From Escherichia coli (GTDB lineage: Bacteria; Pseudomonadota; Gammaproteobacteria; Enterobacterales; Enterobacteriaceae): DNA of 64,000 nucleotides. Shown here one piece after another: positions 34,332 through 38,661 of this stretch; positions within the stretch are counted from its first letter, which is position 1; each line of letters begins with the position of its first letter. The stretch lies in assembly GCF_051903065.1 (NCBI RefSeq), contig NZ_CP178438.1; one strand, 5' to 3'. The translations under genes were made by a program, and so were the position numbers. The notes beneath the pieces are model-generated. The model was not told where the DNA came from and did no database searches. It was given only the letters and a program-made list of their open reading frames with translations.

Positions 34332-34478
34332 TTACGATGCCGGGCGTGGATTGTTGGCGTCCGGCGCTTTACCAGATCCCCCCTACAGCGCTACAATGCC
34401 CGCCCTTAAAGTGGGGGCACTCCCCTAACCGCTTCATCAGGTGAAGCGGATCTGACCTGTCATCAGAACGAGAGAATT

Positions 34479-35840
34479 ATGTTTAAACCGGAACTCCTTT
34501 CCCCGGCGGGAACGCTGAAAAATATGCGTTACGCTTTCGCTTATGGCGCAGATGCTGTTTATGCGGGCCAGCCGCGTTACTCCCTGCGTGTGCGCAACAA
34601 CGAATTCAACCACGAAAATCTTCAGCTCGGCATCAATGAAGCCCACGCGCTGGGGAAAAAGTTTTATGTCGTGGTCAACATTGCACCGCACAACGCTAAG
34701 CTGAAAACCTTTATCCGTGACCTGAAACCGGTGGTGGAAATGGGGCCGGATGCGCTGATTATGTCCGATCCAGGGCTGATTATGCTGGTGCGTGAGCACT
34801 TCCCTGAAATGCCGATCCACCTCTCGGTGCAGGCTAACGCCGTAAACTGGGCGACGGTGAAATTCTGGCAGCAAATGGGCCTGACCCGCGTGATCCTCTC
34901 TCGCGAGCTGTCGCTGGAAGAGATTGAAGAGATCCGCAATCAGGTGCCGGATATGGAGATCGAGATCTTCGTTCACGGCGCACTGTGCATGGCCTACTCC
35001 GGTCGCTGCCTGCTCTCTGGCTATATCAACAAGCGCGATCCGAACCAGGGTACCTGCACCAACGCCTGCCGCTGGGAGTACAACGTCCAGGAAGGGAAAG
35101 AAGATGACGTTGGCAACATCGTACACAAGTACGAGCCGATTCCGGTGCAAAATGTTGAGCCGACGCTGGGTATCGGCGCGCCAACCGACAAAGTGTTTAT
35201 GATCGAAGAAGCCCAGCGTCCGGGCGAGTATATGACCGCGTTTGAAGATGAGCACGGCACTTACATTATGAACTCGAAAGATCTGCGCGCCATCGCCCAT
35301 GTAGAACGCCTTACCAAAATGGGCGTGCATTCGCTGAAAATCGAAGGTCGTACCAAATCTTTCTACTATTGCGCACGCACCGCACAGGTTTATCGTAAAG
35401 CTATCGATGATGCCGCTGCGGGCAAACCGTTCGATACCAGCCTGCTGGAAACTCTGGAAGGTCTGGCGCATCGTGGCTATACCGAAGGTTTCCTGCGTCG
35501 TCATACTCACGACGATTATCAGAACTACGAATACGGTTATTCGGTTTCTGACCGCCAGCAGTTTGTTGGTGAGTTTACCGGTGAGCGCAAGGGGGACCTC
35601 GCGGCGGTAGCGGTGAAAAATAAATTCTCCGTTGGCGACAGCCTTGAGCTGATGACGCCGCAAGGCAACATTAACTTTACCCTTGAGCACATGGAAAACG
35701 CCAAAGGCGAAGCTATGCCGGTAGCACCAGGCGATGGTTATACTGTGTGGCTCCCGGTGCCGCAGGATCTTGAGCTAAATTACGCGCTGCTGATGCGTAA
35801 TTTCTCCGGGGAAACCACGCGTAACCCCCACGGTAAGTGA
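34479..35840 (+). CDS. yegQ: Peptidase U32 family protein YegQ, 453 aa
   Basis: 453-aa ORF of the U32 collagenase-like family; the long antisense ORF 34437..35690 is treated as spurious. Confidence 0.85.
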   Translation: MFKPELLSPAGTLKNMRYAFAYGADAVYAGQPRYSLRVRNNEFNHENLQLGINEAHALGKKFYVVVNIAPHNAKLKTFIRDLKPVVEMGPDALIMSDPGLIMLVREHFPEMPIHLSVQANAVNWATVKFWQQMGLTRVILSRELSLEEIEEIRNQVPDMEIEIFVHGALCMAYSGRCLLSGYINKRDPNQGTCTNACRWEYNVQEGKEDDVGNIVHKYEPIPVQNVEPTLGIGAPTDKVFMIEEAQRPGEYMTAFEDEHGTYIMNSKDLRAIAHVERLTKMGVHSLKIEGRTKSFYYCARTAQVYRKAIDDAAAGKPFDTSLLETLEGLAHRGYTEGFLRRHTHDDYQNYEYGYSVSDRQQFVGEFTGERKGDLAAVAVKNKFSVGDSLELMTPQGNINFTLEHMENAKGEAMPVAPGDGYTVWLPVPQDLELNYALLMRNFSGETTRNPHGK

Positions 35841-35872
35841 TTAATTTCGATTATTTTTCCCGGATGGAAAAT

Positions 35873-35888
35873 TCTTAGAAACCGATCA
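35873..35888 (+). promoter_or_regulatory. Candidate CRP site of the cyaR promoter
   Basis: TTAGAaaccgaTCACA is a half-consensus CRP site ~45 bp upstream of the inferred cyaR start; a -10 TATCAT lies at 35912-35917. Confidence 0.4.
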
Positions 35889-35924
35889 CATACAGCTGCA
35901 TTTATTAAGGTTATCATCCGTTTC

Positions 35925-36011
35925 GCTGAAAAACATAACCCATAAAATGCTAGCTGTACCAGGAACCACCTCCTTAGCCTGTGTAATCTCCCTTACACGG
36001 GCTTATTTTTT
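35925..36011 (+). ncRNA. cyaR: CyaR (RyeE) Hfq-dependent sRNA, ~87 nt
   Basis: GCTGAAAAACATAACCCATAAAATGCTAGCTGTACCAGGAACCACCTCCTTAGCCTGTGTAATCTCCCTTACACGGGCTTATTTTTT matches CyaR as I recall it, including the terminator hairpin and U-tail. Confidence 0.85.
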
Positions 36012-36169
36012 ATGCATAAGCCCTATCCCTGGTCACCGTCTTCCATTGACCACATCGATAGAATCTCCCTTCATAGCACGATGCCTTTCACATAACGGCA
36101 TCGTGCTCGCCCAGGTTCCGGCTACGCACAGCCAGAACGCGCATGTTTGACGCTTACCAAAAAATATTC

Positions 36170-36487
36170 TCACTCTCCACATTTGAATGTCAGGCGAGCG
36201 ACACCATGTAATCCTGCACCTTCTGTCTTCAGGTCAACTATCTGCATTTTTTTGCCCTGAGTAACACAGAAATGGGCTGCATCATTTTTTACTATATTTT
36301 CTGCACCAGAAATTCTGCCCCTGGCTAAAGAAGCTTCGGCTTCGGTGTAGTATTGGTTATCGAGTTTACGCTGAATATTACTTTTATATGCAAGGCCAAA
36401 TTTACCAATACTTGTCTCATCATTATGCACAGCACAACCAGACATAATAAAAATACTAATCAATGATATAGCAGCTATCTTTTTCAT
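36170..36487 (-). CDS. yegR: YegR, small putative lipoprotein, ~105 aa
   Basis: Start taken at MKKIAAISLISIFIMSGCA (lipobox); AT-rich; track ORF extends 35 codons upstream. Confidence 0.7.
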   Translation of the reverse strand: MKKIAAISLISIFIMSGCAVHNDETSIGKFGLAYKSNIQRKLDNQYYTEAEASLARGRISGAENIVKNDAAHFCVTQGKKMQIVDLKTEGAGLHGVARLTFKCGE

Positions 36488-36900
36488 CTCACCTTTCCCC
36501 ATTAAATACCAACGACACTCTCTAGTGTTTAAATATAATAATGGCTGATTATTATATTTGAATAGGATTATAATAAATGTTCTGTACAACATTTCCTACA
36601 TAAGTAGGAATTACAGACATGAAGGCCCTTTCCAAGTAACTCCATGGGGCTTTAATATATTTGGAATAGTATATTTAAGATGCCACTGTTTGGTTGAATA
36701 TTAGGCATATGCTCTTTTTTGAAATTTATCGGTGGCTGCCGTTAGTATTCGCTGTCCCCATTGCAAGCTCCTGGTGGTAACCACTGAATCCCCCATACTT
36801 GAACTGACTTTTTATCCTCCGACTTTCATCCTGTTCTGACTCCACCTTTTCTTTTCTGCTCTACACTATCTACAGACCAATCATAAAGGCACATACGATC

Positions 36901-37800
36901 ATGGCAGAATTTCCCGCCAGCTTACTGATTCTTAATGGCAAAAGTACTGACAATTTACCATTGCGCGAAGCAATTATGCTGTTGCGTGAGGAAGGAATGA
37001 CGATCCATGTGCGGGTCACCTGGGAGAAAGGCGATGCCGCACGATATGTAGAGGAGGCCCGGAAGTTGGGCGTCGCAACGGTGATTGCCGGTGGTGGCGA
37101 TGGCACCATTAATGAAGTTTCTACAGCGTTGATTCAGTGTGAGGGGGATGACATACCCGCGCTGGGAATTTTACCATTAGGAACCGCCAATGATTTTGCC
37201 ACCAGTGTAGGGATTCCTGAGGCACTGGATAAGGCGCTGAAACTGGCAATTGCCGGTAATGCCATTGCGATAGATATGGCGCAGGTCAACAAACAAACCT
37301 GTTTTATTAATATGGCGACAGGCGGGTTTGGGACGCGTATTACCACAGAAACACCGGAAAAATTAAAAGCCGCGCTGGGTGGCGTCTCTTACATCATTCA
37401 TGGCTTAATGCGCATGGATACTCTGCAACCGGACCGTTGTGAAATCCGCGGTGAAAACTTTCACTGGCAAGGTGACGCCCTGGTCATTGGTATTGGTAAC
37501 GGGCGTCAGGCCGGTGGCGGTCAACAATTGTGCCCGAACGCGTTAATTAACGATGGCTTGCTGCAACTGCGCATTTTTACCGGCGATGAAATTCTTCCGG
37601 CTCTCGTATCAACCTTAAAATCTGACGAAGATAACCCGAATATTATCGAAGGCGCTTCGTCGTGGTTTGATATACAAGCCCCACACGAAATCACTTTTAA
37701 TCTTGATGGCGAACCGTTGAGCGGACAAAACTTTCATATTGAAATACTTCCGGCGGCGTTGCGTTGTCGATTACCACCAGATTGTCCATTATTGCGTTAA
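36901..37800 (+). CDS. yegS: Lipid kinase YegS (DAG-kinase-like fold), 299 aa
   Basis: GGDGT nucleotide-binding motif. Confidence 0.85.
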
Positions 37801-37881: not shown

Positions 37882-38661
37882 CTACACCGTAATTAATTTC
37901 ACCCGTGTCTTCTGCAATGCCAGTTTATCCACATCTGACACGGCATCATCGGTAATAATAATGTCAATTTTTTCGATTGGCAGTACCTGATTAAAACCGC
38001 GACGATTAAATTTCGATGAATCGAGAACGGCAATCACTTTATTTGCGGCGGTGACCATCGCCCCGCTAATCGAATAACCTTCATTAAAGGTCGTAATACC
38101 ATTAACCGCATCAATACCATCAGCACCGACAAACATTAAATCGGCATTAATATCCTGCAATGAACGCTCGGCAATGGAACCATGCATCGAGCGCGTTTTA
38201 TGGCGGACCGTGCCACCGCAGACGACCAGAGTAATGTCTTTATTTTCGGAAAGGGCAAACGCTGCCGGGAGACTGTTGGTAATCACCGTGATATTTTTGG
38301 CGGTCATTAATCCTTCGGCGATAAGCATTGTCGTACTTCCGCTGTCGAGAATAACGGTCATCCCTTCGTGGATCATTTTGACTGCCGCCTGCGCTATTCT
38401 GTTTTTTGGCGCGCTGGCGAGCTGAAATCGCTCTTTAAACCCGACTTCCTGGGTCTCGGTTTCACTATTACCGGACATTATTTTCGCCGCACCGCCATGA
38501 AAGCGCGTAACCACGCCTTTTTGTTCGAGAAAGCGCAAATCGGCACGGATTGTCGCTTCCGAGGCAGCAAATACTCCCGCCAGATCCTGAACAAGCACGG
38601 TTCCCTGTTCATTCACTAATTGGATGATCTTATTCCTTCGCTCGAATGAATTCATCGTCAT
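37882..38661 (-). CDS. gatR: DeoR-family galactitol operon repressor GatR, intact
   Basis: ~257-aa DeoR-type HTH plus sugar-binding domain, uninterrupted here. Alternative start MNSFERR at 38655. Confidence 0.85.
   Translation of the reverse strand: MTMNSFERRNKIIQLVNEQGTVLVQDLAGVFAASEATIRADLRFLEQKGVVTRFHGGAAKIMSGNSETETQEVGFKERFQLASAPKNRIAQAAVKMIHEGMTVILDSGSTTMLIAEGLMTAKNITVITNSLPAAFALSENKDITLVVCGGTVRHKTRSMHGSIAERSLQDINADLMFVGADGIDAVNGITTFNEGYSISGAMVTAANKVIAVLDSSKFNRRGFNQVLPIEKIDIIITDDAVSDVDKLALQKTRVKLITV

Follow-up and report, generated by a model that had tools for sequence, protein, structure and literature searches.

The window, by which we mean the whole 64,000-nucleotide stretch of Escherichia coli DNA that was analysed, contains the baeSR-yegP-yegQ-cyaR-yegR-yegS-gatR region. 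The genes and features on either side of the cyaR 3' end are arranged as follows.

34479-35840, + strand: coding sequence of yegQ (trhP), the upstream neighbour; an open reading frame annotated trhP/yegQ in matching E. coli records
35923-36008, + strand: gene for the sRNA CyaR (RyeE), Rfam RF00112
35976-36011, + strand: intrinsic terminator of cyaR, a hairpin (35976-36003) and a T run ending at 36011, taken from the structure line of the Rfam alignment
35985-36011, + strand: unoccupied P2 attB core (AATCTCCCTTACACGGGCTTATTTTTT), 27 bp, the 3' half of the cyaR terminator
36012-36169, no strand: stretch that separates the T run of cyaR from the stop codon of yegR; it would form the left end of the putative older relic
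36075-36107, - strand: stable hairpin of 11 bp with no U tract (RNA fold, -26.1 kcal/mol, z = -3.5)
36170-36487, - strand: yegR, an open reading frame named "protein/lipoprotein YegR" in RefSeq; stop codon at 36170-36172
36488-36736, no strand: AT-rich region (∼30% G+C) upstream of yegR, from the composition profile; interior of the inserted segment
36820-36900, + strand: putative ancestral cyaR-yegS spacer, where homology with strains E69 and E1V33 restarts right after their cyaR core
36901-37800, + strand: yegS (lipid kinase), the conserved downstream neighbour, from its open reading frame, annotation, and tblastn across loci

The upstream neighbour, yegQ, is conserved across Enterobacterales and was recovered by tblastn at 80-100% identity in 120 loci. 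The cyaR gene matches the full-length RF00112 model (positions 1-85) with 100.7 bits, against a gathering score of 47, and a candidate CRP half-site, TCACA, can be read from the sequence ∼41 nt upstream of 35923. Its terminator is the sole intrinsic-terminator-like site within 35800-36950. The terminator stem (35976-36003), with the 5' arm GCCTGTGT and the 3' arm ACACGGGC, contains one U-G wobble; the variant ACACAGGC, found in the divergent allele L033, would give a perfectly paired stem. The hairpin at 36075-36107 lies 63 nt downstream of the yegR stop and occupies the place of the ogr terminator in P2. It was considered as an intrinsic terminator and rejected, as it lacks a U tract and was not called by the terminator scan. 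Clean compensatory changes were not seen in the LF82 variant of this hairpin.

Several other parts of the region vary between strains. The gatR gene is intact in the window (37882-38661, - strand, 259 aa), whereas a K-12-derived record has an incomplete copy and the BL21 copy is split by IS1. Strain ECC-1470 carries a ParD/ParE-type toxin-antitoxin pair between yegP and yegQ (L006 4373-4967), at a position equivalent to window ∼34332-34478, where the window has just a 147-bp gap. Genomes of the LF82 type have 170 extra AT-rich bp directly after the yegR stop codon (L002 ∼1467-1636; insertion point at window 36162-36163), in which one record annotates a hypothetical open reading frame of 41 aa. 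This type accounts for 947 of 5,426 E. coli genomes. The same 170-bp stretch is also present in the divergent allele L033, so the window type may be a deletion.

The P2 attachment core in the cyaR terminator

The 3' half of the cyaR terminator is also a phage attachment core. An exact search for the 27-bp sequence hits the window only at 35985-36011 and gives no match in 100 shuffles. The original prediction had proposed comparing this junction with the P2 attachment sequences, and the match is complete: the window core is identical at 27/27 positions (100%) to P2 24355-24382, annotated as the attP core and Int core-binding site in the P2 GenBank record. We take this attachment site at the cyaR terminator to be locI of Barreiro and Haggard-Ljungquist (1992).

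In P2, the annotated order of elements is ogr, terminator, Int P arm, IHF, core, Cox, P' arm, and int. In strain ECC-1470, two exact cores (L006 6576-6602 and 38972-38998) enclose a complete 32.4-kb P2-like prophage, whose ogr side faces cyaR and whose int side faces yegR. In strain elppa10, cyaR is likewise adjoined by a prophage ogr end, and in the record vB_EcoM-720R8, which is labeled as a phage, yegR is adjoined by a prophage int end. In the mechanism that we propose, an integrating P2-like phage would rebuild cyaR from its own identical core and would come to lie with its ogr end beside cyaR and its int end beside yegR.

Phage and host cores do not differ at this site: the 27-bp core is identical in the two, and prophages are integrated with the core duplicated. 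The same relation is known from phages and islands in the 3' ends of tRNA, tmRNA, and sRNA genes, where the phage core repeats the gene's 3' terminal sequence, integration regenerates the gene, and reuse of the site leaves nested remnants; cyaR is one more example. Because the 3' arm of the terminator falls inside the sequence shared with the phage core, exchange between phage and host may shape the terminator itself. Judged by its sequence, the site at 35985-36011 is a complete native attB core and not a scar of the remnant present in K-12.

The state of the site was surveyed in 5,426 complete E. coli genomes with a 161-bp query centered on the core, for which coverage of at least 80% in one piece was required. 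By this measure, the cyaR site is uninterrupted in 4,202 genomes (77%). It is split in ∼865 (∼16%), where the BLAST pieces overlap at exactly 27 bp; the two split genomes that were examined both have P2-like prophage genes at the site, one of them as a complete 32-kb prophage. The junction characteristic of K-12, in which a truncated gene D (D') runs into a partial core, is covered over at least 80% of its length in 356 genomes. The carriers inspected (MG1655, DH1, J53, ER1709, and O16:H48) are all K-12 derivatives or K-12-like.

This variation has been described previously. Archer et al. (2011; PMC3032704) tabulated "cyaR RNA" as a site of P2 insertion, holding Wphi2 (strain W), ogr-D' (K-12), or P2*B (B) and being empty in Crooks. 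The state found in the window is the majority state and an already published polymorphism, that is, ordinary strain variation at a well-known hotspot.

Two records deserve a separate remark. The BL21 assembly (L127, NZ_CP060121.1 2031204-2039365) has an uninterrupted cyaR site, as opposed to the P2*B of the published table (PMC3032704). In JAIJJM010000051.1 (L120), deposited as "MAG: Collinsella sp.", an E. coli-type cyaR 3' end is joined to the end of a P2-like prophage with a 100% Ogr match, and the contig is probably mis-binned Enterobacteriaceae.

Absence of the K-12 remnant ogrK-yegZ

The annotation of a K-12-derived chromosome reads trhP/yegQ, ogrK (-), a "phage late control D family" pseudogene (-), yegR (-), and yegS, in agreement with the gene order that the original prediction had given. 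It had further held that ogrK and yegZ are absent from the window, leaving ∼160 bp between the cyaR terminator and the yegR stop. The interval measures 158 bp (36012-36169), and pairwise alignment with K-12 finds a single 630-bp block that K-12 alone contains and that begins immediately after AATCTCCCTTACACGGGCTTATTTTTT, as expected from that claim. The block consists of ogrK and a truncated gene D (yegZ) and is 96.7% identical to the P2 sequence running from the 3' end of D through ogr to the attP P arm. At its far end, the D fragment runs into a partial second core, of which the last 18 bp (core positions 10-27) remain. The K-12 remnant is thus bounded by one complete and one partial core, and it lacks int, cox, and the int-side arm.

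None of this is present in the window. Alignment to K-12 found no ogr- or D-like sequence in the cyaR-yegR interval of the window, and the fusion of D' to a truncated second core is likewise missing, as the window-type flank matches only the distal half of the junction query. The tblastn searches with P2 Ogr and Int had as their scope the 120 cyaR loci from other genomes. The K-12 remnant has the insertion point and orientation that an intact P2-like prophage takes here; it differs from the window, which has one full core and no ogr or D. In our explanation, a P2-like phage integrated at the core in the K-12 lineage, and a deletion from gene D into the distal core followed, leaving ogrK, D' (yegZ), and the 18-bp piece of the second core. 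Outside the block, the flanks of the window and K-12 align at 96.8% identity over 901 bp, with point changes. K-12, LF82, BL21, and ECC-1470 all retain the interval 36012-36169, which differs by point changes and lies beyond any insert.

Two histories had been offered for the missing remnant: that this strain never acquired it or that it lost it cleanly. These are the right alternatives, and the first is strongly favored. The window lineage most probably never carried the K-12 remnant, given that the K-12 junction occurs in only 356 of the 5,426 genomes, that the inspected carriers are K-12-type, and that the flanks diverge by ∼3%.

A different kind of past occupancy is also conceivable, in which the lineage formerly held a complete P2-like prophage and precise excision by Int and Cox restored attB. 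About 16% of E. coli genomes are split at the core, with P2-like prophage genes in both of those examined and a complete prophage in one. Excision of this type regenerates attB exactly, so that an empty site is compatible with it; the event would leave no trace, and the core and flank of the window look like those of other uninterrupted genomes. We consider such a history unlikely for this strain, and it does not conflict with the main explanation, that the site is an unoccupied attachment site.

By comparison, it is extremely improbable that an ogrK-yegZ remnant of the K-12 type was present in ancestors of the strain and was then cleanly deleted, as might happen if the full core recombined homologously with the 18-bp core: this direct repeat could in principle mediate precise deletion, but every inspected carrier is K-12-type, the uninterrupted state spans very diverse strains (the window itself being merely 96.8% identical to K-12), parsimony makes the remnant a derived event of the K-12 lineage, and site-specific excision is impossible for an element with no int, cox, or int-side arm and only a partial second core.

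Phage-like arms and a probable second core around yegR

Relative to a yegQ-cyaR-yegS layout, the window contains an inserted segment of 802 bp (36012-36813) that starts at the core boundary and comprises the 158-bp interval, the hairpin, yegR, and the AT-rich region upstream of it. The G+C content of the segment falls to ∼30% in its middle. Together with yegR, the segment is present in 5,349 of the 5,426 E. coli genomes (98.6%). Its yegR portion (36170-36830) is unusually diverse, with 3,296 genomes at 90-95% identity to the window; a 901-bp query that includes the yegQ 3' end gives mostly 95-99% identity across E. coli.

An attachment-site scar had been considered possible at the cyaR-yegR junction. 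The junction proper is an intact attB core, so this idea fails there, yet it holds for a different and apparently older event whose marks lie at 36029-36058 and 36787-36813. The same marks are found in K-12, distal to its own remnant. Three features of the segment resemble parts of a P2 attachment site.

36029-36058, + strand: predicted degenerate P2 Int arm-type binding site (P arm), from alignment to the annotated P-arm Int site of P2
36737-36786, + strand: stretch resembling the int-side arm of P2 attP, from its colinear alignment with the core and a three-way alignment with E. albertii and P2
36787-36813, + strand: candidate degenerate second att core (AATCCCCCATACTTGAACTGACTTTTT), an ungapped direct repeat of 35985-36011 with 19/27 identities

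The first of these is the P arm. Window 36029-36058 (CTGGTCACCGTCTTCCATTGACCACATCGA) matches the P-arm Int site of P2 (GGTCACGTCCACACATTGACCACATCGA) in the correct orientation, with one GACCACA repeat intact and the other destroyed. The copy lies 16 nt closer to the core than in P2, as 16 nt of the IHF region are missing. Its local alignment score of 38 compares with 15.6 ± 2.2 for dinucleotide shuffles, none of which reached it in 2000 (0/2000; z ∼10), and controls with the wrong arm or the wrong strand scored 13-15. The piece is identical at 19 of 20 positions to the arms of P2-like prophages of Citrobacter. Other alleles retain more of the missing sequence: ECE204 has 12 more bases of IHF-side sequence than the window, and SCPM-O-B-8794, a divergent representative classed as E. 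coli, keeps AATTGAATTAAAAGATTTGTTTCTGGTTACGCCC, which is close to the P2 IHF site and the start of the P arm.

At the opposite end of the segment, the int-side arm and the second core, aligned together to P2, score 24, against 9.3 ± 1.6 for shuffles (0/2000), whereas the int-side arm alone is not significant (18 versus 16.4). The second core is the best non-self ungapped match to the core on either strand of the 64-kb window. At 19/27 it narrowly exceeds the top chance matches among 128,000 positions, which are one at 18 and three at 17, and its weight comes from its position and not from its score. It sits at the junction predicted independently from lineages without yegR, just before spacer homology restarts, and MAFFT aligns it to the cyaR core of two such lineages, E69 and E1V33. 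Distant-homology blastn searches with 35960-36175 and 36480-36830 returned only the core and AT-rich noise.

The wider distribution of the segment was assessed in 120 cyaR loci, one genome per species, in which YegQ, YegS, YegR, Ogr, and Int were located by tblastn. Where yegS was located, its start mostly falls 74-117 nt beyond the position equivalent to the core, and a cyaR-yegS spacer of 73-116 bp is the commonest layout across genera. Genera with the short spacer include Enterobacter, Klebsiella, Kosakonia, Atlantibacter, Cedecea, Trabulsiella, Franconibacter, Phytobacter, and Pectobacterium. None of these 120 loci, all from outside E. coli, gave a YegR match by tblastn, and in the comparison of cyaR loci, the 36012-36169 interval was found neither in the Escherichia lineages E69 and E1V33 nor in other genera. 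In strain E69, which has the exact 27-bp core, and in Escherichia sp. E1V33, the core is joined directly to a spacer matching window 36820-36900. Loss of the segment from these two lineages is conceivable, depending on where they branch relative to E. coli proper.

A larger insert with the same boundaries is found in Escherichia albertii NBRC 107761, where 3,456 bp separate the cyaR core from the yegS start. The insert opens with a P2-like IHF/P-arm piece, continues with three open reading frames read from the sequence as cdtA, cdtB, and cdtC of the cytolethal distending toxin (L008 5932-8074), and closes with 96 nt that are 84% identical to the int-side arm and core of P2. Its second core retains 25/27 positions; counted from the yegS start, it sits at -114, as does the degenerate second core in the window. 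The last 136 nt match window 36758-36890 with 78% identity (E = 2e-22). P2 phage-related sequence has been described flanking cdt-V genes in E. coli (PMC4001111).

The E. albertii relic thus resembles the E. coli segment in being bounded by the cyaR core and a second core, in carrying a P-arm piece at the cyaR end and an int-side arm at the yegS end, and in that only cargo genes survive inside. It is 3.3 kb long compared with 0.8 kb for the E. coli segment, which is far more decayed. In addition, the E. albertii cargo is a known phage-borne toxin, whereas for yegR, the only gene of the E. coli segment, relatives in phages are not known. In Enterobacter sichuanensis, the insert measures 941 bp and its second core matches at 21/27, and several genomes of Citrobacter, Buttiauxella, Trabulsiella, and Enterobacter have P2-like arms right after cyaR, some of them with ogr. 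The cyaR terminator thus appears to be a long-used site of the P2 family that accumulates relics.

Origin of the yegR segment

Taken together, these observations suggest that the segment 36012-36813 is probably the relic of an ancient P2-like prophage and that the "empty" site is its attR end. Several marks of a relic are in place: direct repeats of the att core at both ends, arms in the orientation of a prophage (the int-side arm only when taken together with the second core), and precise absence from relatives. One is missing, as no recognisable phage gene or phage-homologous DNA was found within the 802 bp.

In the history that we propose, the ancestor of E. coli proper would have acquired an ancient P2-like phage at cyaR. 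Nearly all of the phage interior would then have been lost by deletion, and the distal core and both arms would have decayed. The core on the attR side would have stayed perfect because it is part of the functional cyaR terminator, and it would still serve as attB. Later P2-like phages would then have reused this intact core, giving rise to the K-12 remnant and to the full prophages of the present day. We hold the explanation as a whole, in which the window junction is an unoccupied primary P2 attachment site with an older relic on its far side, to be highly probable.

The yegR gene encodes a predicted lipoprotein of 105 aa, and PF27694 is present on all homologues; Pfam and NCBIfam searches with YegR gave nothing above threshold, and a sequence search of the PDB gave 0 matches. 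The AlphaFold model is confident (pLDDT 81), and Foldseek with this model found no relative at E ≤ 0.001 in the PDB or BFVD. Distant homologues, at 42-59% identity, lie in unrelated chromosomal contexts, IS-rich or ordinary, that are not phage-like.

We also considered YegR as a phage-borne protein, and the matches in phage collections did not bear this out. Among 50,697 phage records, tblastn found it in two only, both of which include host flank. All 80 matches listed in IMG/VR (L139-L218) are 96-100% identical to E. coli yegR and hence host flank, and most lie at the very end of a predicted prophage contig. The match to PHROG 21109 was rejected as independent phage evidence, since this family is probably built from host flanks. 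It appears that prophage calls extend ∼0.5 kb or more past the int-side att site of P2-like prophages integrated at cyaR.

An alternative to the relic is that the yegR segment is ancestral host DNA, that its likeness to a P2 arm and core arose by chance or convergence, and that the taxa lacking yegR are deletions. The segment has no phage genes inside, relatives of YegR are chromosomal elsewhere, the int-side arm does not reach significance by itself, and the match of the second core is limited to 19 of 27 positions, all of which would fit this view. It would, however, require that deletions arose independently and precisely in dozens of genera sharing the 73-116 bp cyaR-yegS spacer, each with its end point at the final base of the att core. 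It also leaves the P-arm similarity (z ∼10), in the right orientation and place, and a second core exactly where spacer homology restarts as coincidences, and E. albertii and Enterobacter sichuanensis have the same architecture in a less decayed form. We regard ancestral host DNA as improbable.

The direction of transfer could also be reversed, with P2-like phages having taken their P arm from the E. coli flank by imprecise excision. Aberrant excision can carry host flanks into phage genomes, but in P2 the P arm is annotated as an Int-binding site and is functional, and it is preserved better in Citrobacter, Buttiauxella, Enterobacter, and Trabulsiella prophages, whose hosts have no E. coli flank, than in the E. 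coli flank itself. The E. coli copy, moreover, has one repeat destroyed and a 16-nt deletion. This makes a host origin of the P arm very improbable.

With the relic as the preferred reading, yegR may or may not have arrived with the ancient phage. A literature search on the origin of yegR, pairing the gene with prophage, found nothing. The narrower proposal, in which the "empty" P2 site is the surviving attR of an ancient prophage and yegR the last of its cargo genes, kept by the host, is possible but somewhat unlikely. A gene retained in this way would perhaps encode a surface or exclusion lipoprotein. A limited literature search found no publication describing the yegR-containing flank as an older P2-like integration, and the marks of such an integration in the "empty" flank would be only a mildly new point.

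For the strain studied here, the predicted consequence is a free and perfect P2 attB, at which P2-like phages should lysogenise without disturbing cyaR. The use that P2 makes of it might also be influenced by the leftover Int site of the arm type, which lies 45 bp from the core. The reading of the segment as a relic is of modest evolutionary interest, as it would give the orphan gene yegR a concrete origin. It would account for the placement of yegR at the edge of P2-like prophages by prophage-calling pipelines, and it would mean that two or three generations of P2-like integration are stacked at a single sRNA terminator.
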